Both the position numbers and the translations under genes were made by a program. Under the pieces are notes generated by a model that was given only the letters and a program-made list of their open reading frames with translations, was not told the DNA's origin and made no database searches. Below, piece after piece: positions 12,149 through 37,535 of a DNA stretch of 64,000 nucleotides (the stretch's first letter is position 1; every line of letters begins with the position of its first letter). Source of the DNA: a virus; IMG/VR virus record IMGVR_UViG_3300030118_003002, positions 32,235 through 96,234 of that record. One strand, given 5' to 3'.

Positions 12149-13016
12149 CTAATTTCTTTTGTATTTTACCTGTTCTAATACTCGACAAATCCCAATCCAT
12201 CGCCTTGTAAATAGGTTCGGCTTTCTTTATCACCTGTTCGGCATAATGTCGCCAATCGGGTTCATAACTTTCAAGGTCTGCATAAGTAGTTCCGGAAACA
12301 TATTCCGCTTGTCTTTTTTCTCCTGTTAGTGGATGAATGTATGTCTTATGCAAATTCCTTGCTTTCATAAATAAATATGAATCATCAAACTCAGCATTTG
12401 TGTTTTGCCAAGCATATAATATACCAGCAATACCCTCACCAAAAGAGGGTTTTGCATTGTCTAATGTTCTGAATAATTTACCTTCCACACCGCATTTTTT
12501 ACACCATTTAATGTGTTCTTTTATGCTATGCTTAGTTCCGCAATCCGGACATTTTACAGTAAGTCTATTGCTCTTTAGTCTAGACCTTTTAATAATAGAA
12601 TTAATAGGTATTTCGCCATTCAGAACAGAAGAATAAGTATTGTGTAAATACTTATTTATCTCGTCTTGAGTATTCTGATTCACCCACATTTTTAATACAG
12701 TAGTTTGAACTTCTTTTGCCATCTTAGTCTCACTAACTCTTTTAGCAGTAAAACCTGTCATGGTGAATTTGGGTTCATCTAACCATACTCCATCTTCCCA
12801 AGATACTAACCCTGCATTACGATTCTTTACCGTTCCTACACCTAAAGCAGAAAAATACTTTTCAAACTCTAACTGAACAGGGTGTTCATCTAAACCTAAT
12901 ACATTAGGAAAATGTTCTCTAACACTTGCTTCTATTTCTTTGATAGCAGTTTGAGCCTTTTCAACTGAATCAATCTGAACATAGATTGAATCCGTATGCC
13001 CATAAACTACTTTCAT
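12135..13016 (-). CDS. polB: Family B DNA polymerase, C-terminal part (motif C, thumb)
   Basis: VVYGHTDSIYV, LEFEK, KNRNAG, HYAEQV; CPDC...CKKC insert. Confidence 0.9.
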   Translation of the reverse strand: MKVVYGHTDSIYVQIDSVEKAQTAIKEIEASVREHFPNVLGLDEHPVQLEFEKYFSALGVGTVKNRNAGLVSWEDGVWLDEPKFTMTGFTAKRVSETKMAKEVQTTVLKMWVNQNTQDEINKYLHNTYSSVLNGEIPINSIIKRSRLKSNRLTVKCPDCGTKHSIKEHIKWCKKCGVEGKLFRTLDNAKPSFGEGIAGILYAWQNTNAEFDDSYLFMKARNLHKTYIHPLTGEKRQAEYVSGTTYADLESYEPDWRHYAEQVIKKAEPIYKAMDWDLSSIRTGKIQKKLDDWW

Positions 13017-13782: not shown

Positions 13783-13913
13783 TCAAACAACTCCTTATGA
13801 CCGCAATTATTACATTGTAATTTTGCTTTATCTTTCATTAATCTATAACCTACTTTTGGTTTCTTATACCAAACTATTTCCATTTTACCCTTCTTACAAT
13901 AAATGCATTTCAT
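13779..13913 (-). CDS. Small zinc-ribbon protein, 44 aa (not in ORF track)
   Basis: Read manually: MKCIYCKKG...LQCNNCGHKELFE; ATGA overlaps at both ends. Confidence 0.6.
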   Translation of the reverse strand: MKCIYCKKGKMEIVWYKKPKVGYRLMKDKAKLQCNNCGHKELFE

Positions 13914-15580
13914 ATTTTCATCTCCTTTGCTTTGAAGGCAGCCAATCTAATTGCTTCTCTAGCACTAGCAGTAATACTAGCCGCTAAATCAGCATCAGCC
14001 CAACTAAAACCGGTATAGCCAATGATTCCGTAAAATGAAGCCATTAGTCTCTTTACTGCCATTTGATTGTTATACCACTTGATATAGTCACTGTTATTAT
14101 TGTTCTCTCTCGCCTCACGCATAAGTCGCTTATATTCATTTCGGAGTTGCTTTAACTCTAAAACAGATTGAGGTAATAAGCCTAGTTTATCAGTTTTATA
14201 GAATCTATAATCTGATTCAGTTACTTCCGAGAAATCTCTAGGAGTAAGAAGATTGACCGATAATTCAGTTACTTCATTAGATTTAGTCTCCCATGAAATG
14301 TTTCTAGCAATCATCATAGCAGGGTATAGACCTGCATAATCAAAAGCCGCCACATTAAGATGTAGTCCGTTAGTGTTTTCACTTAATGGGTCATAAATCA
14401 TAGCCCCTTGATAGGACTTCTTTTCTGCTTTCTTATTACCTGTTGGTGCTTTCCACCAAGCATTACGCATGAAGTAAATAGAACCCATATGACTTGCATA
14501 AAAACAAGCATCAAATGGTGCTTTCAGTAATCTTTGTAGTGCAATAATCGCTTCGCTACAATAATTAGTTTCATCTATTTCAACAATTAATTCAACATCT
14601 TTTAGAGCATACTGCAAATAAGTTTCAGTATCTTCTAACCAAGCCCTACGATAGAATTCGTTTGGGTCGGGAAACTTTTCTGAAACTAACTTCTTCTTGT
14701 TAAGTAAAGATTCAGATACATAGTCCAAAGATAAAGAAGGTAATGTTCCTCTTTGCGAGTCATTCCATTGTCTTTCAAAAGCCATGTCTAATGAGAGGGT
14801 TATGCGACCCCCTATGGGTTGTTCTATTGGTGAGAACCCCTTTTCACCTTTAGTATATTTGAAGCCCTTCTTAGTCTGTTTAACACCATCTATGCGGTTA
14901 ATCGGTGACATTCTATTAGGGTTAATTCCTAAAGCACAACACCTTTCAAGCAATTTAGGTATATCAGCAAAGTTACCGAACCAAGCAATTAGCATATCGG
15001 GGTCTTTGTCTATCATTGTATTAATGAAATCTTCAAGCATATGTTTTTCATTACGACAATAATATACATTATTTATCTCTAAAGAATTATCAAATATGTC
15101 TATTGGACATTTTTCAGTAGGAAACCATACCCATTGATGGTATTCTTCATCATAATTATCATACATTACAATAGTAGTAATTTCATTATGGTGTTCTCCT
15201 CCTTGTTGCCATTCCATATCCCAATACCATTTACGCATTTTATACTCCGGCATTTCCGAAATACAATCAACTGCATATCTAAATGTATATGGAACATCTG
15301 CTTCATATGTTTGCTTAAACATTTTTCTAGCAGAAAAAACATCAAAAGAGTTTTCAACATATACTCTCTTTAATCTATCACCATCTAGATTCACCCATTC
15401 TCCTCTTTCATATTCAAACTCTCGTTTGATATACTTAGAAGGAGAATATGTTGTATGTTCCTTTTCGTTTTCCTTCACATAAAAGTAGGGTCTAAATCTT
15501 TCCAATTCGAATTTTTTCTCGTTATTCTCTCTCCAAGATTTGTATATGTGTTTTCCATCTAAACACCTACTAATTATCAT
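13910..15580 (-). CDS. polB: Family B DNA polymerase, N-terminal part (exonuclease, motifs A and B)
   Basis: YWDME, YALKD, AFDYAGLYP (motif A), QMAVKRLMASFYG (motif B). Confidence 0.9.
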   Translation of the reverse strand: MIISRCLDGKHIYKSWRENNEKKFELERFRPYFYVKENEKEHTTYSPSKYIKREFEYERGEWVNLDGDRLKRVYVENSFDVFSARKMFKQTYEADVPYTFRYAVDCISEMPEYKMRKWYWDMEWQQGGEHHNEITTIVMYDNYDEEYHQWVWFPTEKCPIDIFDNSLEINNVYYCRNEKHMLEDFINTMIDKDPDMLIAWFGNFADIPKLLERCCALGINPNRMSPINRIDGVKQTKKGFKYTKGEKGFSPIEQPIGGRITLSLDMAFERQWNDSQRGTLPSLSLDYVSESLLNKKKLVSEKFPDPNEFYRRAWLEDTETYLQYALKDVELIVEIDETNYCSEAIIALQRLLKAPFDACFYASHMGSIYFMRNAWWKAPTGNKKAEKKSYQGAMIYDPLSENTNGLHLNVAAFDYAGLYPAMMIARNISWETKSNEVTELSVNLLTPRDFSEVTESDYRFYKTDKLGLLPQSVLELKQLRNEYKRLMREARENNNNSDYIKWYNNQMAVKRLMASFYGIIGYTGFSWADADLAASITASAREAIRLAAFKAKEMKI

Positions 15581-24924: not shown

Positions 24925-25324
24925 TAAACCATCCCTCCTTGAATTTCTCTAACTCCTTTCTTGAAGTAAAGTATCTCGGTGTATCTAATTCATCTAAACG
25001 ATTAACAACCCAACAAGCACCACCTAAAGATGATACCTGAACTATTTCATATTGGCCTTCATTTATTTCAATGACCTCGATAGTATTCACTTCGGGAACT
25101 AAGCCATAATTTCTAGTTATTTCGTTAGCAACATCATGTATATTCTCAATGACATATTTGATAATATGCGCTCTTTGAATCGGTATCTTTGGTGCTACTT
25201 GAATAGATAACTTTCCGGTCATTTTACAAACCTTACACTTATTACCTTCACAAATAGGACATTTAACCTCTGCCGCATGAGGAGCAGGTAAAGTTACAGT
25301 TACGGCTCTTTTCTTCATATTCAT
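24917..25324 (-). CDS. Protein with DnaJ-like CxxCxG zinc motifs
   Basis: CPICEG...CKVCKMTG. Confidence 0.55.
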   Translation of the reverse strand: MNMKKRAVTVTLPAPHAAEVKCPICEGNKCKVCKMTGKLSIQVAPKIPIQRAHIIKYVIENIHDVANEITRNYGLVPEVNTIEVIEINEGQYEIVQVSSLGGACWVVNRLDELDTPRYFTSRKELEKFKEGWFSE

Positions 25325-26838
25325 TCCTCTCTCAAAACTGCTACTTCGGTAGTTAGGAAAAGTTTTGCTATTGACATAGCCGCAAGGAAACTGTTTCTAG
25401 TTACCTTTACAGGGTCAACAATACCCAATTCAAACATATTTCCCACTTCACCTGTCATAGCATTTATTGATTCATTTGTTTCTAAAGGAAGATAATGCAA
25501 ATCATCAACACTACTGTTATCACATAAAGTAATAAACGGTGCAATTAACGATTCATACACTACATGATGACCCTTCTTTGCTACATCTAAAGAATCTCTA
25601 GCATTAAGAAGTGCCTTACCTCCACCAATAACAATACCTTCGTCAAGTGCTGCTTTAGTAGCATTAAGCGCATCATCTAATCTTTCTTTAGTTTCACGCA
25701 TTTCCATTTGTGAAGATGCACCAACTTGAATAGTAGCAATACCGCCATTCAATCTTGCTATCCGCTTTTTGTATCGCATCTTGTCATACTTGTCATCTGT
25801 TGATTCATACAACTCTTTCAATGAAAATACTTTGTGCTTCTTAGAATCTGAATCAGCATTACCTCCACCGATGATAACTGTATTATCTTTTGAAATAATT
25901 ACTCTATCAGCAGTTCCCAATTCATCTAAAGTAGCCATTGAAGGTTCATCTTCGCTTTCTTCGTTAAACATTTTACCGCCACAAACAGTTACAATATCGT
26001 CTAACTCATCTAATTGAGCATCACCGAAGTTTGGTGCTTTTACCACTGCTACTTCAATTGTCTTTTGAAGAACATTCATAATTACATTACTTAGTGCAGT
26101 GCCTTCCATACCACGACAAATGATTACCAATGGTTTCTTATTCTTAGCACATAATTCTAGCAACGGAAGTATTTCTTGAAAGTGTCTAATGTTCAGGTTA
26201 GATGAAAAGATAACGGGATTATCAAAGGTTACTTTGCCGTCTTCTCCATTACACATCATATGACTTAGATAGCCTTCATCAAACTCTAAACCGCTTCTTG
26301 TGACTATTTGTGTTTTATGAGTTTTAGATTCTTCAACAGTGATGATACCATCACGCCCTACCGCACTGATAGCCTCTTGAATTAGAGAACCTAACTCATC
26401 ATCATTATTAGCCGCAATAGTAGCAACATTCAGAATATCATCATCAAGAATAGGTATTGCGTTATCTATTAGATAAGAAGCAATAATTTCTTGAGCCTCT
26501 TGTAATTCATTTTGAAGCACTCTAATGTTATAATTCTCTTGTTTCTGAATATTCTCAACAAGTGCTTGAGCAATAATACAAGCAGTTGTTGTTCCATCGC
26601 CAGAATTATCTTGTGCTTTGCTTGCTAAGTTTTGCACCATTTGGACTCCCATTTGAACATAAGGGTCATTACTTGATACATACTTAGTAATTGTAACTCC
26701 GTCATTAATTATAACAGGAGGATTACCTTGCAAAATAACTGTTTTTGCTTGTGGCCCTAATGTTGGTTTAACGGTATTTGCTACTAAATCAATTCCTTCT
26801 TTCAATTTCTGTTTTACTTCTTCTCCATTAATTATCAT
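25321..26838 (-). CDS. groEL: Group I chaperonin GroEL-like
   Basis: TLGP, NDGVTI, GDGTTT, KAPNFGD, GIVIGGG, GIVDP. Confidence 0.93.
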   Translation of the reverse strand: MIINGEEVKQKLKEGIDLVANTVKPTLGPQAKTVILQGNPPVIINDGVTITKYVSSNDPYVQMGVQMVQNLASKAQDNSGDGTTTACIIAQALVENIQKQENYNIRVLQNELQEAQEIIASYLIDNAIPILDDDILNVATIAANNDDELGSLIQEAISAVGRDGIITVEESKTHKTQIVTRSGLEFDEGYLSHMMCNGEDGKVTFDNPVIFSSNLNIRHFQEILPLLELCAKNKKPLVIICRGMEGTALSNVIMNVLQKTIEVAVVKAPNFGDAQLDELDDIVTVCGGKMFNEESEDEPSMATLDELGTADRVIISKDNTVIIGGGNADSDSKKHKVFSLKELYESTDDKYDKMRYKKRIARLNGGIATIQVGASSQMEMRETKERLDDALNATKAALDEGIVIGGGKALLNARDSLDVAKKGHHVVYESLIAPFITLCDNSSVDDLHYLPLETNESINAMTGEVGNMFELGIVDPVKVTRNSFLAAMSIAKLFLTTEVAVLREE

Positions 26839-26983: not shown

Positions 26984-27199
26984 TTATACCACCGCCAAAA
27001 TAAACTCATAGGGAATAAACAGAATATCGTTCTGCCTTGTATATTCTCTTTTATCATTAAAAAGAACAACCTTATCTCTAAGGCTGGTATCAACCTTACA
27101 ATCTATTACTCTCCCTTGATTAGCGGCTTTAGTCAAAATACCGCTTTCGCTTTTTGTTTCTTCTATTTTCACAATTACATATTCTCCTACTGCTTTCAT
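26984..27199 (-). CDS. groES: GroES-like co-chaperonin
   Basis: MKAVGEYVIVK...SESGIL...GRVI...DKVVLF...ILAVV. Confidence 0.8.
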   Translation of the reverse strand: MKAVGEYVIVKIEETKSESGILTKAANQGRVIDCKVDTSLRDKVVLFNDKREYTRQNDILFIPYEFILAVV

Positions 27200-27371: not shown

Positions 27372-27644
27372 TCATTCTTCTTCACCTTTGAATTTATTAT
27401 TTCTCGCCACTTGGCAACATACTCTAATTTTCTGTGTTGACTGCAATCCCCAAAAAGAACCTTCATCCCAGCCGAACTTAAATTCAACATAATTACATAA
27501 TTCTCTTCTTGTCATTCTTTGAAAATCATCATCAATCTTAATACCTAAGATTTTATCATTATCTTCATACTTTACAAACTTGTCTAATGTAACATAAACA
27601 AGACCCATAAACCATATTGTCTTTTTAAGCATCCATTGTATCAT
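27372..27644 (-). CDS. Hypothetical protein
   Basis: Coupled operon gene. Confidence 0.5.
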   Translation of the reverse strand: MIQWMLKKTIWFMGLVYVTLDKFVKYEDNDKILGIKIDDDFQRMTRRELCNYVEFKFGWDEGSFWGLQSTQKIRVCCQVARNNKFKGEEE

Positions 27645-27955
27645 TCTTCTTCACCACTGATGTTAACCCATCCCTTATTCATATCAGCATCAATATATGT
27701 CCAAATATGATTCTTATGGAATTCCATTAAGTCTTTGTAAGAATTACCTTTCTTACCCCAATAAACTCCCTTCTTTGGATTAGTAGTATTTTTATCATTA
27801 GGGTGTTTTGACATATGCCTTCGCTTTCTTTCACTTAGAGTTATTCTAGTGACTGCCTTAGCATCCGATTCGCCATATTGTGTTTCTTTATTGAACGGCT
27901 TTCCTTTGTATTGTCTAATTGCATTATTTCCACTTTTAATTTTTCTAAATCTCAT
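27641..27955 (-). CDS. Hypothetical basic protein
   Basis: Coupled operon gene. Confidence 0.5.
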   Translation of the reverse strand: MRFRKIKSGNNAIRQYKGKPFNKETQYGESDAKAVTRITLSERKRRHMSKHPNDKNTTNPKKGVYWGKKGNSYKDLMEFHKNHIWTYIDADMNKGWVNISGEEE

Positions 27956-28497
27956 TCTTCTTCATCTCCTTTTCTAACCCAAACTTGGGTTCTTTCATAT
28001 TCATGGTTACGGTATATATCTAATAGATAAGGTTCTTTTTGACTCCAAGAACCATAATGCCCATCTCCACCTAACACATAAGCAGTCTTCATTAATGGTT
28101 GCCAAATACTAACTGTTCTAATATCAGTTCCACTGAAATAAGCACTACCGAATGGGTGTGTGTGAATCCAGCACTTAATCGGCAATTTCATTCCAACAGG
28201 GTCAATTTGAAAATCAACATAACCGGCTGAACCTGACGAAATATGAATAGCATCATTAGAATCAATAACAACTTGAACCTCTAAACCATTCAGTATTTCT
28301 GTTGAAGCAAACCAAATATGTTCAAATAAATCTTTTATTTCCATACCTTGTTTATAATAAGCATCAATATGATTCTCCGCTTCTGCTCTTGCTATTTCTA
28401 AATCAGTTTCTAAATCAACCTTACAATCACACTTACCACCATAATATACTAAATTACCACAATCCATGCACTGTTCCGCACTCCAATTTTTTCCCAT
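27952..28497 (-). CDS. JAB/MPN+ (JAMM) metallo-isopeptidase
   Basis: Catalytic E (GLEV) followed by WIHTHPFGSAYFSGTD = HxH-x7-S-x2-D. Confidence 0.85.
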   Translation of the reverse strand: MGKNWSAEQCMDCGNLVYYGGKCDCKVDLETDLEIARAEAENHIDAYYKQGMEIKDLFEHIWFASTEILNGLEVQVVIDSNDAIHISSGSAGYVDFQIDPVGMKLPIKCWIHTHPFGSAYFSGTDIRTVSIWQPLMKTAYVLGGDGHYGSWSQKEPYLLDIYRNHEYERTQVWVRKGDEEE

Positions 28498-29580
28498 TTA
28501 TTTCATCTCCATTTTCTTTAATTTTCTTTGGGTCTTTGCTAATTTCTTCTCTAACCGCTTTTGCTTTTTAGCGTTTCTCTTATCTCTCCAACGCTTCCTA
28601 AGCGAAGGTTTTCTTTCTGCTAACTTATTAGCCTCTAACTGTTTCTTGATACCTGCGGCCTCCATAAGCAACGATTTACTTTCAGCATATGTAAAGTCAA
28701 AATGCTTCTCGATATGTTTTGCTATTACCCAATATGGGCGACCAAACTTTTCTCTCGCATCATCAATTGACATAGAATGCCACATTACCAACGCTTCTAA
28801 TGATTCATCATATGTCCAAGGTTTGTTAGTATTAGGATATTCAATACTTTCATTATTCAAGCGAGTCCAATTTTTAGGTAATTTTCTTGTCGCTGACTCA
28901 GGTGCTTCGTGAGAGAATAATGTTCTCTCCGTAGGTATTTCATTTTGAAGAGTATATGTGCCATTCTTTCTAACTGTCTTAATAGAAGGCGTTAGATGTT
29001 TTAGGCTTCTTAACCATCTTTCACGACACGCTCTATGTGTTCTATTCAAATTAGGAGGAAAGCCTTGTTCTCCATCTTTATGTTCATTCATCCAATTAAC
29101 CAAAAGAGCATCTTCTTTTGGAGTCCAACGGGTTGAATTACCACTGTATAACAAGTTGGTATTATTCTTCGCTTTAACATTAAAAGATTGAGTCTCTAAT
29201 AGTGTAGTCTCTAATAGTTTAATCTGCTCATTAGCGGCCTCTTTATCGAATTCGCCACGCTTTGAGGCTTCTATTAACTCATTTGTTAATTTAGTAATTT
29301 CGCTAGTTTTAGCGTCAGGCAGTGTCATAGAAGCAATATACTTGCATTGTTTTCTTGTGGCAGGGTCACTTCTCCAATCACTTGTTTTAGGTTCATCATC
29401 AAAAGATATGTTATATTGATTGATACATCTTCTAATAGTAGCACCATAATTATCCACTGTTCTATCAGGATAGCCTTCTTTATCCATTTGAGCCTTAATT
29501 TCAGGCCAAGTTCTTTTTTCCACTAAACGCAAATATGCGCCTCTCATTATTTGTTCTGTTGTCCATTTCTCTCCTTTCAT
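28498..29580 (-). CDS. Myb/SANT-like repeat protein
   Basis: RWTPKEDALL...NRTHRACRERW; weaker repeats KWTTEQ...RTWPEI and PWTYDES. Confidence 0.6.
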   Translation of the reverse strand: MKGEKWTTEQIMRGAYLRLVEKRTWPEIKAQMDKEGYPDRTVDNYGATIRRCINQYNISFDDEPKTSDWRSDPATRKQCKYIASMTLPDAKTSEITKLTNELIEASKRGEFDKEAANEQIKLLETTLLETQSFNVKAKNNTNLLYSGNSTRWTPKEDALLVNWMNEHKDGEQGFPPNLNRTHRACRERWLRSLKHLTPSIKTVRKNGTYTLQNEIPTERTLFSHEAPESATRKLPKNWTRLNNESIEYPNTNKPWTYDESLEALVMWHSMSIDDAREKFGRPYWVIAKHIEKHFDFTYAESKSLLMEAAGIKKQLEANKLAERKPSLRKRWRDKRNAKKQKRLEKKLAKTQRKLKKMEMK

Positions 29581-29591
29581 TTTTATTCCTC

Positions 29592-30152
29592 CTATACATT
29601 AATTACCATAAAGGATTTTACATCTTCTTTGTTAAACCATCTTTGAATCCATTGTGCGCCAATACCTGCAATAACAACTTGCATGAAATGAACGCCACTA
29701 TTACTTCCATCCCATGAATCTCCTTGACAAGAAAATGAACCATCTGGCCCTGCTAATAAAGAATCATACATTTTAGGGTCTGCATCAGAAGTAACAAAAG
29801 CCCCATTACGACCTTGCGCTCTTAAATCCAACCATTTAATATTTGAATTATACAATGTTCTTCTAACTGATAAATTATCAACACAACATACAACTAAATC
29901 ATATCCTTGCATTTGTTTAGCAGTTAGGATAGGAAACTTGCTTGCATTATTAACACTATTATATCGAGCATTCATCCTACTTACTTTGTGAAAATTAACA
30001 TCTTCTTCTGTAAAGTTTTGATATGTTAAATTCTTAGTTTCGACCTTATCGGGGTCTGCTACTGAAATATCATACATTCCTACTTTATCTAATAGTGGCA
30101 CTAGGAAACTCCCAATACCACCTACTCCTATAATCAATATTTTTCTTTTCAT
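29592..30152 (-). CDS. ThiF/MoeB-family E1-like Ubl-activating enzyme
   Basis: IIGVGGIGS, DPDKVETKNLTYQ, DLVVCCVDN..R, WLD, SFSCQ; start 30152 forms an ATGA overlap. Confidence 0.88.
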   Translation of the reverse strand: MKRKILIIGVGGIGSFLVPLLDKVGMYDISVADPDKVETKNLTYQNFTEEDVNFHKVSRMNARYNSVNNASKFPILTAKQMQGYDLVVCCVDNLSVRRTLYNSNIKWLDLRAQGRNGAFVTSDADPKMYDSLLAGPDGSFSCQGDSWDGSNSGVHFMQVVIAGIGAQWIQRWFNKEDVKSFMVINV

Positions 30153-30784
30153 TCTAATCTCTCCAATTTTGCATTCCATTTTTTATTATAATTATCTATT
30201 TCTTCGTTGTATTTGTTTTTGTAGTGGTCTTTAGGCCACCACTTTGGCATTCTTTTTGCCCTCCATTCAGCAAACCTCCATTTACCTTGAAGGTAATAGT
30301 GTCTGTAACTATTAATTACGAAGTCCCAATCGGGAATCCTGTTATCTTTAACTAATCTATACTTATCATCCATAGCAATAGTTACAGGTGTAGCAAACGA
30401 CCAATTAGAATCTTCATCAATCGTATATGCTATATCTAGTATTCTAGATTGCGAACCATGAACCTTACCGTAGCGATAGGTATATTCTTCACATAATGCT
30501 TTACCATGTTCATATAACCATCGAGTATTATGAGGGTTCTGTCTAGCCCATATTGTTGAAGGATGATTCAACATAGCAGGTTTCATTAGTCTTGAATTAA
30601 TATCTCTATGAAACTGCTTTACTTGTGCTAAAGTAGGTTCTTCACCATAATGTTCAATGTAGTCAAAATACAAAACATTTGTATGTAACATTTGACAAGT
30701 TTCCGTTGGCATTTTAACTATGTGTTTGTCTAACATTTCTAGTGCCGCTTCTTGCGGATTTCTTGATAGTGCAAATATATTCAC
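30149..30784 (-). CDS. Pyrimidine-dimer DNA glycosylase (DenV)-like protein
   Basis: MNIFAL...DKHIVKMPTETCQML, NHPSTIW, EEYTYRYGKVH. Confidence 0.75.
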   Translation of the reverse strand: MNIFALSRNPQEAALEMLDKHIVKMPTETCQMLHTNVLYFDYIEHYGEEPTLAQVKQFHRDINSRLMKPAMLNHPSTIWARQNPHNTRWLYEHGKALCEEYTYRYGKVHGSQSRILDIAYTIDEDSNWSFATPVTIAMDDKYRLVKDNRIPDWDFVINSYRHYYLQGKWRFAEWRAKRMPKWWPKDHYKNKYNEEIDNYNKKWNAKLERLE

Positions 30785-30916
30785 TTAAATTTCCTCCTTG
30801 CTTCTTCAAATATATTATAGTGGTCTTTACGACCAGAAATAATTTGCTTTTTGCAATATTCCTTTCTTTTATTATTAGTAGTCACATAAGTATTTAGAAA
30901 ATCCTTTTTCCAATAT

Positions 30917-31825
30917 CTATGCTCGCTTGTCGGTATTACATCTCTCATTCTTATTGTCATTTATATCACCATATTCTATTATATCTCGCCCTTTAATTTC
31001 GGACATTCTATTAAATCCTAACATTTGGATTAATTTTTTACTTGTCTTTCCTATTGCTGATAAGGAAATATCTGTGCTTTCAGAAATATCATTCTTAGTT
31101 ACACCATAATATCTAAACATATTTGTCGCCACCCAGCATACACTTGCGTAATATGCCTTTGATTTATGATAACAATGGTCTTCTATGATAGGTTCTAACT
31201 TTAACATCAAATCCATAGCATTAGAATAAAACATCACATCATCTGTTATTCTAGAACAGGTCTGCTTTAACATAAAAGAAGGGTCTGCTCCGTAAAGTAT
31301 ATTCTTACTCTTAAAGTGGTGAATCATTTTACGCACTAATCTATTCACTACTTTAGTTGAACATGAATATTCAGAACATAATTCTTTCATAGGAACAGGT
31401 GTTCTATTTTCTTTCAGAACATAAAAGACAACAGCAGTGCATCTAGCCTCTAGTTTGATTTTACCAAACAAACCTTTCTTCTGTGCTTCTAAGTAACATT
31501 CCTTAACTCTATCTTTAAGAGGGTGGTTTATTTGAATAGAAGATAGAATCATATTACAGGTCTGCAAACCAGCAGTAATATGTCTAGGAATAACATTATT
31601 GTTTCCTCTCCTATTAAACTTAAATGAACCCTTTCCTGTTATTATAGAACCCAATTCTCCTCTTTCAGCAGAATGAACAACCTTTCCGTCATCTATCATT
31701 CTGACACTTTCTTCAAACAAATCTGTTACGACCACTAATCCGCAATCGCTACATTCTGTTTCTCCTAGTCTTTCATTATAATTAAAGACTAAACAACCAC
31801 ATTCACCGCATTTCATCAAAATCAA
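30917..31825 (-). CDS. tfb: Transcription factor B (TFB/TFIIB)-like protein
   Basis: N-terminal CGECG...GETECSDCGLVV zinc ribbon plus two cyclin-like helical repeats. Confidence 0.8.
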   Translation of the reverse strand: MILMKCGECGCLVFNYNERLGETECSDCGLVVVTDLFEESVRMIDDGKVVHSAERGELGSIITGKGSFKFNRRGNNNVIPRHITAGLQTCNMILSSIQINHPLKDRVKECYLEAQKKGLFGKIKLEARCTAVVFYVLKENRTPVPMKELCSEYSCSTKVVNRLVRKMIHHFKSKNILYGADPSFMLKQTCSRITDDVMFYSNAMDLMLKLEPIIEDHCYHKSKAYYASVCWVATNMFRYYGVTKNDISESTDISLSAIGKTSKKLIQMLGFNRMSEIKGRDIIEYGDINDNKNERCNTDKRA

Positions 31826-33053
31826 CTCTTATACTATTTTCATTATTACATATATACCTTTTAATCGTGCTAACTATTTTTACTGTTAAAGTATCATTAA
31901 GAAGTGCTAATGCTCTTGCTACAAATTGGTCGCCTAAAGAAGAACCGCCAGACATATTATCAATACAAATTGGTCCTTTCCATTGAGGTTCATTAGTTGG
32001 TTTTGGCGGTAATTTAATTTCTTCTTCAGAACCATTATTAATAGCATCAATATTAATTCCAAAACATTCTTCTTCCCACTTCTCAATTTTTTGTGCGAAG
32101 TGTTCATCAGTATCGGGTGTTGAATAAACAAATGTCGAAACCATCTGAATATCTGATTTGAATTTAGTGTTCGTAAGTTTCCAATCCCAGCCTTTTCCAC
32201 GAACATACATGGCTGATACTTCTTTATCATCATCGTAAATGACTTTGATTCTATCAGGATATTTTTCTTCTGTTTCTTTAACTAATAACTTAGCCCTATC
32301 TTCAACAATATCCTGTTGTCTATTTTGTTTTAGAAATTCAATCATTAGTTTTCTATCTGAAACTTTTGGTTTAACTCCTACTGTTCTTTCATAAAGAATT
32401 TCAGGAGAACAAAACATCCATTTTTTACTTCTCTTTTTACCATGAAGATAAAAAGCGCAAAAGGATTCTAATTCTTTATTAGTCATAGTTCCCCAAACTC
32501 CATCACTAACCTCAATCGCAACTTCATTATCGCTAATTTGCTGACAATTCAATCTAACATTAGTTTTCTGAAAATCATCGAAGAAATGGAATGGCACTCT
32601 ATTCTCTAAACAATACTTTACATCTTCGGGAATACTTAGAGTAGCATACAATCCTTTCATTAGTTTAGCCACATCTTTTTCAAAACATGACTTGAAAGTA
32701 ACTCTAGCCAAAGCAGAAGCAATAGTATGCAAACTTTCTGTTTTACCATTAAGAGTATATCTGCTACCCTTTTTTCCTAATGCTATCAAACAACCTCCAA
32801 TATCAATAACTTCGTTAAAGTCCCTTGAAGGTAAGTTCATATATCTATAATGTCTAGTATAATATCCTCGTCTTGAGGATTTTAAGTTGCTAGAAAAGAA
32901 AGCCGTAATAGCCGAATGAACGGGGTCTTTTGCATTTCTATTAGATTGAATAGAAACATCGTGTGGCGTTTTAATCAAATTACTTCTAATCGTTGTTCTC
33001 CAATGTTGTTGGGAATCATCAGGTCTTTTTATTCTTATTTTTAATTCATTCAT
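31803..33053 (-). CDS. Unknown protein with candidate C-terminal E2/UBC-like active-site motif
   Basis: WKGPICIDNM...GDQFVARALALLND resembles the E2 G-x-I-C-L-D motif plus following helix. Confidence 0.4.
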   Translation of the reverse strand: MNELKIRIKRPDDSQQHWRTTIRSNLIKTPHDVSIQSNRNAKDPVHSAITAFFSSNLKSSRRGYYTRHYRYMNLPSRDFNEVIDIGGCLIALGKKGSRYTLNGKTESLHTIASALARVTFKSCFEKDVAKLMKGLYATLSIPEDVKYCLENRVPFHFFDDFQKTNVRLNCQQISDNEVAIEVSDGVWGTMTNKELESFCAFYLHGKKRSKKWMFCSPEILYERTVGVKPKVSDRKLMIEFLKQNRQQDIVEDRAKLLVKETEEKYPDRIKVIYDDDKEVSAMYVRGKGWDWKLTNTKFKSDIQMVSTFVYSTPDTDEHFAQKIEKWEEECFGINIDAINNGSEEEIKLPPKPTNEPQWKGPICIDNMSGGSSLGDQFVARALALLNDTLTVKIVSTIKRYICNNENSIRVDFDEMR

Positions 33054-33221
33054 TTTATCACATCATATAACTATTATCATTTATATTATTAACACATTCT
33101 TTGTGAATTTCTTTTTTCATATCTTCCGGTAAAAGTAATTGGCCTCCACAAATCCTACATTTAGTAGCGACTCTTTTTTTATACGACCAATTACTCTTTG
33201 TATATTCAGGGTCTTTTTCTT

Positions 33222-33566
33222 TCATTTATACCACCCTTTCATCATATTATAAATATAATTATTATAGAAATCGGTTTGGTTTTTATTATGGTATTGCAGG
33301 GCTTCATGTCTTTCTGTGAATGCTTTTCTGGCATAGTCAGTAAAGCCTGTTTCCACCGCTTCTTCTATTTCCCATAGTATTATTTTAACAGTTTGCCAAA
33401 GTCTATACTTTTTATCTGTTTCATCTTCCAAACCTGCACAAGCGTCAAGTGCTAATTTAATTTTATTTTTCGCAGAATTAGACCATACATCATCATAAGA
33501 AATAATGACTCTTACAAAGTCATTAAAACTCAAATGACGGATAGGCCGAATCCTACGAGTTTTCAT
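33222..33566 (-). CDS. Hypothetical protein
   Basis: RBS-preceded ORF in operon. Confidence 0.5.
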   Translation of the reverse strand: MKTRRIRPIRHLSFNDFVRVIISYDDVWSNSAKNKIKLALDACAGLEDETDKKYRLWQTVKIILWEIEEAVETGFTDYARKAFTERHEALQYHNKNQTDFYNNYIYNMMKGWYK

Positions 33567-33574
33567 CTAATCAC

Positions 33575-35446
33575 CTAGATTTCACAAGCCCCGCCAGCAC
33601 AAGCCAATTCACCTGTTAAGTTAGTATCGTCTTGTTCTTCGGTAATTTTAGTCAAATCAATCTTAGTTAAGGTTAACATCATTTCATCATATGTCTCCTT
33701 ATCTATTGTTTCAAATGGTGCTTGTTTGTATGTTCCTCCATCATAAGGCAATACAGACAAACCATTGTAGTAGTGTCTATTCATCCATAGCCATTCACCA
33801 ACATCATCCCATTCATCATCTTTTACAGATATTGTTGCTGATACATTATGGCTATTCAAACCATCAACATGGCCTGTTCTAACCCAACGGATGCTGAAAT
33901 TCTTAACACGCTCTAATAAATCAAATACTGATTCATGTCGTGTAATGGCATCATCGGGAGACTTTTGAGGAATAGAAATAACTGCCTGTTCCTCCGGATT
34001 AAAGTATTCATCTTCAACCAATTCAGGATGATTAGATGATAGATAAGAATAGATTGCTTCATTTTTACCTACTCTAATTCTTCGAATGTAATAATTATCG
34101 TGCCAAGCATGAATACCGCTACTTGTTCCTAAAACAAGAGAAGTAGTTCCAGCAGGTTTTACACAAGTAATTCTAGCCGCAGGTTTTACACCAATGATTT
34201 TAGAAATCCTCTTGTTTTCCTGTTTAGCAGCAAACGAAGCCATTTCCAAATCTAAAGGTTCAACAACATTAGAAGCAATACCTGTCATAGATACACCGAG
34301 CAAAGAATCCTTTTCAGTATTCTTTTTCCATATTTCTCTAAGGTAATGGAAATCAGTATAACCTGCTTGAAGCGTTCCTATGAATGAAGCCGCTTTTACT
34401 CTTGCTTCTAAATCTGCTTGGTCTGTAATATCAGAAGCATTCACCTCTGTTAGATTACAAAATTGATAAGGCCGTAAAGCAATTTCACAACAAGGATTTG
34501 TTCCCCAATCTTTGTCATTACTAAAATAAACTGCTGGTTCACCACTACCACTATGTTGTATTCTTTCCCATAGACCCATAAAGAAATCTTTAGTTACTCT
34601 ATGTCTAAGAATAACTGCTGAATTATTTGCACGACCTCTTTGTGGATTATTTTCCCACCAATTACCGGACTTACAACTAATCATTTTAGAATCATCTGCA
34701 CTAAATAAACTAATCATGGCGGCTCTCCTAATACCACCTGCTAATACTGCATCTGCTAAATAACACATAATATCATGTGCTTCAATTGAATCTAATTTAG
34801 AGCCATTATTTTTATTTTGGAGCATTCCTTCTATTTTAACTAAACATTCTCTTAATGGCTGAAAACCGGGTGCTTTTCCACCACTAGTTCTTAATAGGCT
34901 TCCTTTTGGTCTAATATCAGAATAATCAAAAATAGGACTACTACTCCTAATTCCGGTATAACACTCCAAAAGGATTTTAATTGAATCAGCCCATCCTTCA
35001 ATAGAATCGCTAATAAGATACCTGCGTTTTCTTTCGGAATTAGGCTGAATGATTTCCGGTAATTGCTCAATATGATGCCGTTGAACCGAATATCCAACCC
35101 CCGTTCCACCGAGAAGTAAGAACATAGCCTCGCTAAAAGATAAAAGGGAATCAATAGGCATATAAGCACAATTATAAACCCTATTTGGACTAATTTCGAT
35201 AGGTTTGCCCCCAAATTGCATAGAGCGCATTGAAGGGAGAATTTTCTTTGTTTTGACGAATTTTTCATAAATTTCACCTATTTCTTCTGTTAATTCTGGA
35301 TATTTTTTAATATGCATATTTCTGTTTCTTTCGACTATTTCATTCCAAGTTTCTCTTCTTTTCTTTGCTGGTAAATACCTTGCATATTTCATATGCACTG
35401 TAATATCAGACAATGTTTCTATTGCTGTATTTGACATCTTTAACAC
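33575..35446 (-). CDS. nrdJ: Class II (AdoCbl-dependent) ribonucleotide reductase
   Basis: NPCCEI, VKPAGTTS, GGIRRAA, C-terminal CAGGACEI. Confidence 0.9.
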   Translation of the reverse strand: MLKMSNTAIETLSDITVHMKYARYLPAKKRRETWNEIVERNRNMHIKKYPELTEEIGEIYEKFVKTKKILPSMRSMQFGGKPIEISPNRVYNCAYMPIDSLLSFSEAMFLLLGGTGVGYSVQRHHIEQLPEIIQPNSERKRRYLISDSIEGWADSIKILLECYTGIRSSSPIFDYSDIRPKGSLLRTSGGKAPGFQPLRECLVKIEGMLQNKNNGSKLDSIEAHDIMCYLADAVLAGGIRRAAMISLFSADDSKMISCKSGNWWENNPQRGRANNSAVILRHRVTKDFFMGLWERIQHSGSGEPAVYFSNDKDWGTNPCCEIALRPYQFCNLTEVNASDITDQADLEARVKAASFIGTLQAGYTDFHYLREIWKKNTEKDSLLGVSMTGIASNVVEPLDLEMASFAAKQENKRISKIIGVKPAARITCVKPAGTTSLVLGTSSGIHAWHDNYYIRRIRVGKNEAIYSYLSSNHPELVEDEYFNPEEQAVISIPQKSPDDAITRHESVFDLLERVKNFSIRWVRTGHVDGLNSHNVSATISVKDDEWDDVGEWLWMNRHYYNGLSVLPYDGGTYKQAPFETIDKETYDEMMLTLTKIDLTKITEEQDDTNLTGELACAGGACEI

Positions 35447-35820
35447 CTATATTTGCTGGCTTTAGGTAATTCAAATAGAGTCGAAAAGGATGAAAGCCAC
35501 TCACCTTTTTTGCTAATTACCCACTCTTTCTCAATGACAAATTCCCATTCGTCAAAGTTATTAACTGCGAAAGGATATTCTTCTAATAAAATACTTACAG
35601 AAGAATATTCCTTATCCTTGAATAGAATCTTTGTTTCACCCGAAGCGTATATTTGGCCGTATTTACCACGACCAATAACATAACCTTCGGGATAGAAGTC
35701 CGGTGTAAAAACCGCTACTTCATCACGGATGAATGGTTTTGTCAAGTTCCAACCATTCAGTTCAAATAAAATTTTAAGAGCATCGGGAGACATAAAATGT
35801 TTCAAATTCATATTAACCAC
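35440..35820 (-). CDS. Hypothetical protein
   Basis: Operon position. Confidence 0.5.
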   Translation of the reverse strand: MVNMNLKHFMSPDALKILFELNGWNLTKPFIRDEVAVFTPDFYPEGYVIGRGKYGQIYASGETKILFKDKEYSSVSILLEEYPFAVNNFDEWEFVIEKEWVISKKGEWLSSFSTLFELPKASKYRC

Positions 35821-35830
35821 ACTGCAAAAA

Positions 35831-35867
35831 GGGGAGAGAACAAGGCACTAAGCCTCATTCTCCCCCC
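35831..35867 (-). terminator. Hairpin plus U-run downstream of the Ubl gene
   Basis: GGGGAGAGAA...TTCTCCCCC stem, AAAAA at 35826-35830. Confidence 0.55.
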
Positions 35868-35898
35868 AAATGTCGCAAATATAGTCGGGTTAATAAAA

Positions 35899-36099
35899 TC
35901 AACCGCCAACGATTGCTGGCGTTAAATCAACTGACTCAACAGTGTCCCAATTGATACCTGCTATTTCTTCTCTAGCCATCATTTCACCATTGATGAAAAC
36001 CCAATGTGTAGGGTGTGTATCAATTTGCTCAATGACTTCTTCGGAAGCCATAACTAGTTCTGTGTGTCCTGTTTCGTTCAAAATTGTTAACTTAATCAT
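35899..36099 (-). CDS. Ubiquitin-like beta-grasp protein (ThiS/MoaD/SAMP-like)
   Basis: 66 aa; MIKLTI strand, VFINGE, C-terminal VDLTPAIVGG. Confidence 0.82.
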   Translation of the reverse strand: MIKLTILNETGHTELVMASEEVIEQIDTHPTHWVFINGEMMAREEIAGINWDTVESVDLTPAIVGG

Positions 36100-36137: not shown

Positions 36138-36153
36138 CATATAAAGGGAGTCA
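36138..36153 (-). promoter_or_regulatory. TATA-type promoter TGACTCCCTTTATATG upstream of Ubl
   Basis: Exact 16-bp copy at 42882-42897; both lie upstream of - strand genes. Confidence 0.65.
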
Positions 36154-36263
36154 TTCTCCATTCTCGTCTCCCCCTATTGCTAAAGCGGCCAAAGGCCAAA
36201 TCATTGTTGAAGCCGCTACTACGGCTATTGTTCCTACTACTAATTCTTTCAATAATCCCATAT

Positions 36264-37535
36264 TCATTCCTCTTTCATTCTTTCTATTTCATTACTTGCC
36301 TCTTTTCGGGTTAATCCCGTTCTCCATTCCGAATTTTCTTCGGGGCAATAGCCCAAATCTTCTAAGTATTTGATTTGGGCTGGAGTTATCATTTTATCAC
36401 AAATTCCCTTTAATGAAGATAATTGACTTCCTGTTAATTCTCTTCTTTCAGACAATTGTGTTTTAACGCTGGATAAGAATTTATATTCCCAAGTCGTTTC
36501 TGCCAAAGATACATCAAAAGGTCTTAAACCATAATACATACACATTTGCATAAATGTTTCATTTGCTGATGTGCTTAGTATTAGTTTAGCCTTTTCGGTT
36601 GCTTTTCTTTCATGTTCAAGCCTTTGTGCTTCTCTCCTTTGTCTATTTATTTCGGCTTGACGCTCTCTTTCTTCCCTTCCGGCTTCCCATGCCCTTTGTT
36701 TTTCTTCGGCTTCTAATCGCATTTGTTCTTGTCTTTGTCTTCTTATTGCCTGTTGTCTAAGATAATTGTCTGTTCTTTCTTGAGCATGATTCATTAAACT
36801 ATCAAACCTTTCTTTATGTTTAATAGTGAACATAGCATCAAAAATAATCATGTCTTGCCACAACTTATCTGTTGGATAGCCTCTTGTTCTTGATTGCGCC
36901 CTTTTGTTATTAGGGTGTTCCCAACGCCAAACAATAGAAGCCATTTGATAATACCTATCTGTTGGTGAACCAACTCCTTTCTTTCTAAGAGCAGAAGTAT
37001 ATCTGTAACGATTATCCCCACTATCCCAAAACAAATTAGGTTGTCCTTTAACATTAATTAGAATGTCAGCCTCTTTGATTTTTTCATATATCATATTAAA
37101 CTGTTCACCGTTTTGGTGCATCCATGCTTTAGCCATCATTGTTTTTGTTCGCTCTTGAATCCAAGTATCAATTTCACCTTCTGTAATATCTTCAATATCT
37201 CTTCCGGTTCTGTTAGCAATTTCTTTCATAATTAGATAAGTATTGATATGGTCTGAACCAACACATTCAACAATACCGTTTTCAGTATTAACAATTTCAA
37301 AGTGATATACTACACTATGACCGCAAAGACATTTACCTCTCCCCATTTGTGAGTTTCTAACCCAATCGGGAGCATCTTCATCACCGCCCCACCAAACTGA
37401 ACCTGTGGCAATCCATTCTTCTTTTGCTTCTTCATAATTATCAGCAACAGATAATTCAACCATTCTTTCCATTAGTTTTCTATCCCAACGGCCTTGTCCT
37501 AAACTTCTCTTTGCTACTATTGTTTCAACCATCAT
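36264..37535 (-). CDS. Hypothetical protein with Cys/His metal-binding motif and coiled coil
   Basis: CLCGH...CVGSDH; R/E/Q-rich segment. Confidence 0.6.
   Translation of the reverse strand: MMVETIVAKRSLGQGRWDRKLMERMVELSVADNYEEAKEEWIATGSVWWGGDEDAPDWVRNSQMGRGKCLCGHSVVYHFEIVNTENGIVECVGSDHINTYLIMKEIANRTGRDIEDITEGEIDTWIQERTKTMMAKAWMHQNGEQFNMIYEKIKEADILINVKGQPNLFWDSGDNRYRYTSALRKKGVGSPTDRYYQMASIVWRWEHPNNKRAQSRTRGYPTDKLWQDMIIFDAMFTIKHKERFDSLMNHAQERTDNYLRQQAIRRQRQEQMRLEAEEKQRAWEAGREERERQAEINRQRREAQRLEHERKATEKAKLILSTSANETFMQMCMYYGLRPFDVSLAETTWEYKFLSSVKTQLSERRELTGSQLSSLKGICDKMITPAQIKYLEDLGYCPEENSEWRTGLTRKEASNEIERMKEE

Follow-up and report, generated by a model that had tools for sequence, protein, structure and literature searches.

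A predicted ubiquitin-like protein-tagging gene set in a magrovirus of Marine Group II archaea

The analysed window is a 64,000-nucleotide stretch (positions 32,235 to 96,234) of the IMG/VR record IMGVR_UViG_3300030118_003002, a group-B magrovirus from the ocean whose 96,234-bp genome is rated 100% complete. Three genes noted in the preliminary description, namely a small ubiquitin-like protein (Ubl), a ThiF-family E1 and a JAMM protease (JAB), are confirmed as open reading frames on the minus strand of this window. A fourth gene on the same strand, encoding a 416-aa protein with a predicted E2/UBC-like domain, is added here. The genes are not chance reading frames: the Ubl has 556 homologues, the E1 has 741 and the 416-aa protein has 429.

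The Ubl gene (35899-36099, minus strand) encodes an acidic protein of 66 aa that ends in PAIVGG. It has no hit in Pfam, NCBIfam, PADLOC or PHROG. However, its AlphaFold2 model has a mean pLDDT of 92.4 and the order b-b-a-b-b-(a)-b, which is a beta-grasp, and the best structural matches from Foldseek and VIA are all ubiquitin, NEDD8, SUMO, MoaD or BilA. A candidate archaeal TATA element (TTTATAT; 36139-36145, minus strand) can be read about 43 nt upstream of the start codon. Directly after the stop codon lies a terminator-like hairpin of 16 bp followed by U5 (35826-35867, minus strand), with a folding energy of -30.1 kcal/mol and z = -5.9; none of 200 shuffled sequences (0 of 200) folds as well.

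The C-terminal GG is invariant in 29 of 29 aligned homologues, while what follows it is variable (NY, NL, VC, SY, AILS...) or absent. About two thirds of 120 close homologues carry 1-4 variable residues after the GG, which is the signature of a precursor. In the present genome the protein is already in its mature form, with no residue after the GG. Relatives of the Ubl (253 at E<=1e-3) include head-to-tail poly-Ubl genes with 2-3 repeats, most ending in xVGG (one has AG), plus a short cap (relatives P0242-P0244, P0251, P0252 and P0256), as well as fusions of the Ubl to E1 (P0250 and P0294) and to JAB (P0381). The Ubl has a single, poorly conserved Lys, so chains are unlikely. It has no Lys or Arg after R43, so trypsin would leave a 23-residue remnant, and the diGly proteomics suggested in the preliminary description would not work as it stands.

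The E1 gene (29592-30152, minus strand) encodes a single ThiF-type adenylation domain of 186 aa. The reading frame could start at 30179, but homologues start at the MKRK methionine (30152), whose ATG overlaps the upstream stop codon as ATGA and is preceded by a GGAG motif. Pfam ThiF matches with E 3.8e-17 and 62.7 bits against a cut-off of 28.1, and profile matches include the structures of ThiF, MoeB, MccB, Cap2, Uba4, Uba5 and UBA3. The GxGGxG motif, the VDN Asp and the S-C-Q Cys (codon 29727-29729) are invariant, and there is no CxxC pair. The nucleotide-site residues and the S-C-Q Cys remain invariant from the magrovirus to a phage homologue at 37% identity and to host homologues. However, the protein lacks the N-terminal helices that carry the Arg finger in MoeB and ThiF, and it has Tyr where the NLxRQ Arg sits. 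Co-folding of the E1 with the Ubl gave only weak support for a complex, with a score of 0.47 against 0.00 for the best of 3 controls. That mark was reached by 58 of 80 solved complexes and by 2 of 110 mismatched pairs, but at 0.60 or under it was reached by only 7 of those 80 and by both mismatches. The runs agree in at least 89% of contacts and the pLDDT of the partner is at least 84. Because E1:Ubl complexes have been solved, the pass may reflect likeness.

The JAB gene (27952-28497, minus strand) encodes a JAMM/MPN+ metalloprotease of 181 aa with a variable N-terminal part that here holds a CxxC...CxC cluster. The motif E73...H112-x-H114-x7-S122-xx-D125 is exact and is conserved in 10 of 10 sequences. 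Pfam Prok-JAB gives only a partial hit below its cut-off (E 2.3e-4, 21.5 bits against 25), whereas the profile matches AMSH-LP, STAMBP, Rpn11, BRCC36 and JAMM1 over the motif with E values of 7e-4 to 0.2. BLASTP to the host JAB gives E 7e-18.

A rival explanation is a sulfur-carrier system. In this reading, the E1 adenylates the Ubl, which is then turned into a C-terminal thiocarboxylate by host sulfurtransferases and donates sulfur for a thiolated tRNA base, cofactor or other metabolite needed during infection. The JAMM protease would only uncap the GG, as in CysO/Mec+ and QbsE/QbsD, and the 416-aa protein would be unrelated or would be the sulfur acceptor enzyme. The best family models for the E1 are indeed the ThiF and MoeB adenylyltransferases (TIGR02356, E 7e-15), MoaD is the top VIA match for the Ubl (Z 5.2), the xPxxVGG tail appears similar to MoaD/ThiS tails, and a capped GG together with a JAMM protease is known for sulfur carriers (PMC1779556). 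On the other hand, all NCBIfam ThiF/MoeB hits are far below their cut-offs, for example 54.9 bits against 275, and no ThiG, MoaE, rhodanese or PP-loop (NcsA/TtuA-type) ATPase was found in the whole viral genome. Head-to-tail poly-Ubl genes and Ubl fusions to large domains are typical of modifiers, not of sulfur carriers. The JAB is kept even where the Ubl needs no uncapping, as in this genome, and the three genes co-occur strictly with a predicted E2-fold protein. The sulfur-carrier role remains the main rival, but it is considered unlikely.

The 416-aa protein (31803-33053, minus strand) matches no Pfam family. Its AlphaFold2 model, built from a 74-sequence alignment, has a pLDDT of 86. The N-terminal 245 residues are of unknown fold, whereas the C-terminal domain (residues ~246-416, nt 31806-32318) is predicted to have an E2/UBC-like fold. 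An unbiased VIA search of 48,161 chains matched residues 244-416 almost only to E2, RWD, UEV and FANCL-ELF structures with Z 3.8-5.9; E2, RWD and UEV folds made up more than 40 of 50 rows, including UBE2S (Z 5.6, rmsd 3.9 over 114 residues) and Ubc9 (Z 5.6). The motif W-x-G-P-I-C363-I-D-N-M contains a cysteine (codon 31965-31967) that, with its flanks, is invariant in 74 of 74 sequences, and the stretch GPIC363IDNM seems to resemble the E2 active-site stretch GxICLDIL. The E2 assignment nevertheless rests on a predicted model with middling Z scores, and Foldseek of the whole protein found nothing significant. The domain has no HPN motif, has a 45-residue insert before the Cys strand and matches no Pfam E2 family, and Cys363 could not be superposed on an E2 catalytic Cys. 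RWD and UEV domains share the fold but are inactive.

Another rival explanation is E2-independent tagging of the SAMP/Urm1 type, in which the E1 alone activates the Ubl, conjugation follows without a carrier enzyme, and the 416-aa protein is a UEV/RWD-like binder, an adaptor or the main substrate of the tag. Archaeal SAMPylation appears to need only the E1 UbaA (PMC2948915), the inactive RWD, UEV and FANCL-ELF domains match at equal or higher Z, and in the host the E2-like homologue is not next to the Ubl-E1-JAB genes. However, the invariant Cys is embedded in the most conserved stretch of the protein and recurs in the phage and host counterparts with the same spacing, C-x11-D-x8-L-xx-D, which is hard to explain for a mere binder. 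The NCBIfam UbaA model scores 30.8 bits against a cut-off of 450. This alternative also seems improbable.

The four genes are strictly associated. All four are present, co-oriented and in the same order in 59 of 59 related viral loci with enough flanking DNA to show them, and the incomplete cases sit at contig ends. A TFB-like protein with a Zn ribbon and a cyclin-like region (30917-31825, minus strand) lies between the E2-like gene and E1. It has a weak Pfam TFIIB Zn-ribbon hit (E 0.011), is present in related loci, and fits the gap between the E2-like gene and E1 in the 59 loci; it is a conserved neighbour, and its membership of the system is not shown. The preliminary description regarded the genes as dispersed among unrelated genes, but this holds only for the present lineage. 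In many magroviruses the Ubl, E2-like, TFB, E1 and JAB genes lie within about 4.3 kb, and a tight cassette recurs in marine phage-like contigs. Six of these show a ~700-aa protein ending YICIVDKS..VNRIxALHND, followed by Ubl, JAB and E1, and a seventh shows the large protein and the Ubl before the retrieved stretch ends. An hhalign comparison of the C-terminus of that protein to the magrovirus protein gives E 0.0063.

The set is also not unique to the virus. Host Poseidoniales carry diverged homologues of the Ubl, E1, JAB and the E2-like C-terminus (31-45% identity), and 57 of 101 sampled genomes of the order have the E1 or a di-Ubl at E<=1e-15. The viral proteins may interfere with the homologous host system instead of tagging proteins: the viral JAB could strip host conjugates or process host poly-Ubl, or the viral Ubl and E1 could act as decoys, blunting a host pathway that may be defensive. 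Bacterial Ubl systems such as Bil and CBASS Cap2/Cap3 are antiviral (PMC10557695), although the function of the host system here is unknown. A decoy would not need all four parts to be kept as core genes with intact catalytic motifs in every relative, and this explanation is regarded as very unlikely.

Taken together, the beta-grasp fold with its invariant GG, the precursor-type extensions, the fusions, the strict co-occurrence and the predicted E2-fold domain with an invariant Cys support the core inference of the preliminary description, that the virus carries its own Ubl/E1/JAB tagging set with a candidate E2. Most likely, though with only moderate confidence, this is a virus-owned system of Ubl activation, transfer and removal; conjugation has not been shown and no target is known. 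In the proposed scheme, the Ubl is made from its own transcription unit and, in many relatives, is a capped precursor that the JAMM protease must trim. The minimal E1, probably a homodimer like ThiF and MoeB, adenylates the C-terminal Gly with ATP and probably then takes the Ubl onto its invariant Cys. The Ubl then passes to Cys363 of the 416-aa protein, whose large N-terminal part would choose the substrate (no separate E3 was recognised), and it ends up on a viral or host protein. The JAMM protease matures precursors and, because it is also kept where the Ubl is uncapped, probably removes the tag as well. Every chemical step in this scheme, the thioester relay and the existence of targets are inferred, and the reversibility of tagging and the roles suggested in the preliminary description (proteasome targeting, control of TFB/Myb proteins, decoy) remain hypotheses. 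No paper among those that could be searched describes this gene set.

Among known systems, the bacterial BilABCD systems of Types I and II (PMC10557695, PMC11601596) have the same four roles: a Ubl with a C-terminal Gly (BilA), an E1 (BilD), an E2 (BilB) and a JAB/JAMM peptidase that pre-processes the Ubl (BilC), with no recognised E3. Tandem beta-grasp Ubls occur in both, and the viral Ubl model matches BilA (8tyz_B) at Z 5.0. In the virus, however, the E1 is a single domain and the set is encoded as a core gene set, not in a cellular defence operon. No PADLOC model matched the Ubl, JAB or E2-like protein, and only the Rossmann part of the E1 matched Cap2-type E1-E2 models. The prokaryotic E1-like/E2-like/JAB/Ubl gene clusters of Iyer, Burroughs and Aravind 2006 (classes 6a-6e; PMC1779556) were described in bacterial chromosomes and plasmids. 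The only phage case in that paper is the lambda/T1 tail-assembly Ubl (TAPI) with the JAB of TAPK, which has no E1 or E2, and the Pfam models derived from those families (Prok-E2_*, UQ_con) do not match the 416-aa protein.

The SAMP/UbaA/JAMM1 system of Haloferax volcanii shares the archaeal context, a small beta-grasp Ubl ending in GG, a ThiF-type E1 and a JAMM protease that removes the tag. SAMPylation, however, probably uses no E2, and UbaA probably also serves sulfur transfer; the viral E1 is about 85 residues shorter than UbaA and has no CxxC pairs. Finally, the sulfur-carrier pairs with a JAMM uncapping protease (CysO/Mec+, QbsE/QbsD) and the ThiS-ThiF and MoaD-MoeB pairs have a beta-grasp protein whose GG is capped by a few residues, a JAMM protease and a ThiF-type adenylating enzyme. 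The virus encodes no sulfur-transfer or sulfur-using partner; a predicted E2-fold partner, poly-Ubl genes and Ubl-enzyme fusions are present instead.

The 96,234-bp virus record is rated 100% complete, and its right-hand 64 kb encodes a split family-B DNA polymerase, an RFC-like ATPase, an ATP-dependent ligase, a GroEL-type chaperonin, a class II ribonucleotide reductase (RNR), a UvrD-type helicase, a TFB-like protein and a terminase. This is the gene set of group-B magroviruses, the tailed viruses assigned to Marine Group II (Poseidoniales) archaea (PMC5434244). The polymerase is split into two ORFs on the minus strand (12135-13016 and 13910-15580), separated by about 0.9 kb. Directly upstream of the GroEL gene (25321-26838), a 71-aa ORF on the minus strand (26984-27199) has a weak Cpn10/GroES hit (E 0.008, 16.6 bits against a cut-off of 21.1), although the first magrovirus paper assumed that these viruses have no co-chaperonin (PMC5434244).

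The preliminary description named a ubiquitin-like protein (Ubl), an E1 and a JAB peptidase, and all three are real ORFs on the minus strand. The Ubl (35899-36099) is an acidic protein of 66 aa that ends in PAIVGG, and one of its homologues is annotated in 'Poseidoniales virus YSH_150918'. No match was obtained for it in Pfam, NCBIfam, PADLOC or PHROGs, and a profile of the Ubl searched against PDB sequences gave only chance hits. An ESM Atlas search gave no usable hit. With a 22-sequence alignment, however, AlphaFold2 gives a model with a pLDDT of 92.4, the strand and helix order of a beta-grasp, b-b-a-b-b-(a)-b, and a flexible tail. The best 50 Foldseek matches in the PDB are ubiquitin, NEDD8, SUMO and ISG15 (probability 0.57-0.98, E about 1e-2), whereas an independent VIA search of 48,161 chains places MoaD, Fubi, the bacterial Ubl BilA and the Ddi1 UBL domain on top (Z 5.0-5.2). 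The predicted fold is therefore settled, but it does not separate a modifier from a sulfur carrier. The Ubl gene is its own unit, with a TATA-like TTTATAT 43 nt upstream and, right after the stop codon, a 16-bp hairpin plus U5 (-30.1 kcal/mol, z -5.9), an arrangement that would suit high expression. A short hydrophobic ORF of about 37 aa on the minus strand (~36151-36264; MNMGLLKELVVGTIAVVAASTMIWPLAALAIGGDENGE) lies between the 423-aa gene and the Ubl promoter region.

Sequence variation at the C-terminus suggests that the Ubl is processed at the di-glycine. Among 120 close homologues the GG never varies; 42 of them end exactly at GG, while most of the rest, about two thirds of the set, carry 1-4 residues after it that differ freely (NY, NL, VC, SY, AF, QQ, AILS). 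A conserved cleavage site followed by a free-running cap is what ubiquitin-type precursors look like. A profile search of 1.84 billion representative sequences found 253 relatives, whose architectures include genes of two or three head-to-tail Ubl repeats, most ending in xVGG (one has AG), with a short terminal cap (proteins P0242-P0244, P0251, P0252, P0256, P0273 and P0297), Ubl-Ubl-E1 and Ubl-E1 fusions (P0250 and P0294), one Ubl-JAB fusion (P0381), and Ubls fused to larger domains. Such fusions tie the Ubl functionally to this E1 and to a JAB, and all of them need a protease that cuts after GG. P0250 and P0242 have no relatives among the viral contigs searched, but P0250 has relatives in Poseidoniales MAGs, and di-Ubl stretches occur in genomes of that order.

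A further group of proteins (P0298, P0322, P0357, P0363, P0382, P0312, P0333 and P0356) has a phage-type Ubl ending in GG, fused to a C-terminal domain of 100-200 aa (about 150 in most) of unknown family. One distant Ubl fusion gives a weak hit to lambda tail-assembly protein I (Lambda_tail_I, E 0.07), and this was the only hint of a role like that of lambda TAPI/TAPK. Such a role was rejected for this virus, since an E1 is present and the genes lie in the replication and early-gene block rather than in the structural module at 47-64 kb.

The E1, a single domain of 186 aa, matches Pfam ThiF (PF00899) at E 3.8e-17, with 62.7 bits against a cut-off of 28.1. Its homologues are 185-187 aa long and start at MKRK; this start, at 30152, overlaps the preceding stop as ATGA and has GGAG 10 nt upstream. 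The preceding gene, on the minus strand (30149-30784), encodes a 211-aa protein with a Pyr_excise (T4 endonuclease V-like) hit (E 7e-8), and it is present in only some relatives. The E1 keeps the glycine loop and the ribose-binding and Mg-binding Asp residues, with G18, G20, G21, G23, D42, D44 and D101-N102 invariant in 18 of 18 sequences. S150-C151-Q152 is also invariant, including in the phage and host homologues. However, the protein starts at the first Rossmann strand and thus lacks the N-terminal Arg-finger helices, and the NLxRQ motif reads KNL[TPS]YQNF, with an invariant Tyr53 in place of the Arg; the host homologue has His at this position. The best matches of the E1 were PDB entries 9egb and 9egc, for which no paper was identified. 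A co-fold of E1 and Ubl with ATP gave weak support, with a score of 0.47 against 0.00 for the best of 3 controls. This mark was reached by 58 of 80 solved complexes and 2 of 110 mismatches, but at 0.60 or under it was reached by only 7 of the 80 and by both mismatches. The runs agree in at least 89% of contacts and the partner's pLDDT is at least 84. Since E1:Ubl complexes are solved, the result may reflect likeness.

The closest models for the E1 are ThiF and MoeB, and a capped GG together with a JAMM protease is known for CysO and QbsE. A sulfur-carrier system is the main alternative to protein tagging. Against this alternative, no rhodanese, PP-loop ATPase, MoaE or ThiG was found in the complete genome, while the positive controls matched, although host enzymes could still serve. 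In addition, all ThiF/MoeB equivalog scores are far under their cut-offs, and a partner with a probable E2 fold and the poly-Ubl genes fit a modifier better.

The JAB (27952-28497, minus strand) has the exact motif E73...H112-x-H114-x7-S122-xx-D125, and all of these residues are conserved. Pfam Prok-JAB nevertheless stays just under its cut-off, at 21.5 bits against 25, and only over residues 108-145. The profile matches AMSH-LP, Rpn11 and JAMM1 structures weakly; its top PDB hits were WD40 repeats, which were rejected as repeat-driven noise because each stretch has E>100. The N-terminus carries a CxxC...CxC cluster (CMDCGNLVYYGGKCDC) that only one of eight related loci (L006) shares, and the N-terminal third of this protein varies greatly. 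Several consecutive genes on the minus strand at 27372-28497 (JAB, the 104-aa ORF and the 90-aa ORF) end in EEE, as do nearly all JAB homologues in the related loci L001-L008, and the GAGGAG codons probably double as the ribosome-binding site of the overlapping next gene. Between JAB and E1 lies a 360-aa protein (28498-29580, minus strand) with a weak Myb-like hit (E 0.016) and a basic tail, which is poorly conserved or absent in relatives where E1 and JAB abut. In this genome the Ubl is already uncapped, yet the JAB is retained, so the JAB probably also removes the tag. The Ubl has one poorly conserved Lys, which makes chains unlikely.

A probable fourth component is the 416-aa protein at 31803-33053, which has 429 homologues. 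No Pfam family matched it at E<=0.1, NCBIfam, PADLOC and PHROGs gave nothing, and UQ_con was not found in the genome. Its most conserved stretch is W-x-G-P-I-C-I-D-N-M...G-D-Q-F-x-x-R-A-L-A-L-L-N-D, in which Cys363 is invariant in 74 of 74 sequences. The model (pLDDT 86) shows, from residue 246, a helix (246-264), a four-stranded meander (269-311), an inserted helix, a strand (357-362) ending at Cys363 and three helices, with the cysteine 10 residues before helix 373-385. Foldseek searches of the whole protein against the PDB found nothing at E<=0.001, and an E2 (2o25_B) appeared only at rank 37 with a probability of 0.38; against BFVD, only three unnamed full-length viral homologues were found. 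The alignment-free VIA search, in contrast, matched residues 244-416 almost exclusively to the UBC-fold superfamily, with more than 40 of 50 rows from E2, RWD, UEV or FANCL-ELF structures. These include FANCL-ELF (Z 5.9), UBE2S (Z 5.6, rmsd 3.9, 114 residues), Ubc9 (Z 5.6), UBE2K, UBC12, UBE2J2, UbcH5, Ubc13, UFC1, RWD and UEV domains, bacterial BubB and the ASFV E2. The Z values are middling (3.8-5.9), and therefore the fold can be called probable but not proven. The context of the cysteine appears to resemble the E2 active-site stretch GxICLDIL, but there is no HPN motif, and a variable 45-residue insert precedes the Cys strand. Alignment of the magrovirus protein with hhalign to the C-terminal domains of four Ubl fusions (P0278, P0265, P0296 and P0247) gave E 0.056, which is not significant, and only the motif spacing C-x11-D-x8-L-xx-D agrees. 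A SAMP-like scheme without an E2, in which the 416-aa protein is a binder or a substrate, cannot be excluded.

To examine co-occurrence, IMG/VR was scanned with the E1 alignment, which found 223 viral contigs, of which 80 were retrieved with 10-kb flanks. HMMs of the four proteins found all four, co-oriented and in the order Ubl, E2-like, E1, JAB, in 59 of 59 loci with enough flank, which demonstrates a gene set only and not activity. Every locus lacking one gene is cut by a contig end on that side, except for two phage loci, whose large protein the E2-like HMM does not reach. In this genome the genes span 8 kb because RNR and other genes are inserted. In others (for example loci L073, L043 and L017) they lie within about 4.3 kb, with E1 and JAB abutting or overlapping and only a TFB-sized gap between the E2-like gene and E1.

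A related set is found in phage-like contigs that carry a sigma-70 factor, a family-A polymerase and RNR, where a back-translated TLTNALVGG-stop pattern was used because the alignment of phage-type Ubls was too variable. Six of these contigs carry a tight cassette consisting of a 700-750-aa protein ending G-x-Y-I-C-I-V-D-K-S...V-N-R-I-x-A-L-H-N-D, followed by Ubl, JAB and E1, and a seventh (L098) shows the large protein and the Ubl before the retrieved stretch ends. The phage JAB is an unambiguous Prok-JAB (53 bits, E 3.8e-14). The C-terminus of the large protein aligns to the magrovirus E2-like motif without gaps, but this is only marginally significant (hhalign E 0.0063).

Homologues also occur in host genomes. 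The Ubl-Ubl-E1 fusions come from Poseidoniales MAGs (GC 46-54%, against 34% for the virus), where a JAB gene follows (locus L085, 7878-9664). On another contig (locus L089, 196-1662) a host 488-aa protein, which ends in SVCIHT...LGDQLAAVALALVDD, has the same Cys motif as the viral E2-like protein. In a sample of 101 genomes of the order, 57 have the E1 and/or a di-Ubl at E<=1e-15. Identities between virus and host are 31% for the Ubl, 33% for E1, 34% for JAB, and 45% over 31 residues of the E2-like motif. The viral set is thus a diverged relative of a host set of unknown function, and an interference role against the host's own system cannot be excluded. The diverged host copies, which include polyubiquitin-like precursor genes, raise the question of whether virus and host compete through protein tagging. 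A more far-reaching possibility, which is considered unlikely on present evidence, is that magroviruses, among the most abundant archaeal viruses in the surface ocean, run their own E1-E2 ubiquitin-like cascade during infection and attach the tag to host proteins. The targets might be transcription factors or defence proteins, which the tag would send to the archaeal proteasome or switch off, in competition with the homologous host system. If so, the hijacking of ubiquitin-type signalling by viruses, known from eukaryotes, would also exist in archaea.

Complete Ubl/E1/E2/JAB sets are known from eukaryotes, a few archaea and, recently, bacterial antiphage systems, but in the papers searched, including all magrovirus papers, none is described as a core gene set of a virus of archaea or bacteria. 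The set described here occurs in hundreds of abundant ocean viral genomes and has the smallest parts yet of this kind, a 186-aa E1 and a 66-aa tag, which makes it an attractive minimal model of E1-to-E2 transfer. It also bears on how ubiquitin-type signalling arose from sulfur-carrier ancestors. With respect to the archaeal SAMP/UbaA system, the viral E1 does not match the UbaA equivalog family, as it scores 30.8 bits against the NF047750 cut-off of 450. The closest described systems are the E1/E2/JAB/Ubl clusters of Iyer et al. 2006 and the bacterial BilABCD operons. The viral genes correspond to the BilABCD gene set of Ubl, E2, JAB and E1, with the E2 assignment resting on a probable fold, but the viral E1 differs from the BilD architecture (PMC11601596) in being one 186-aa domain.
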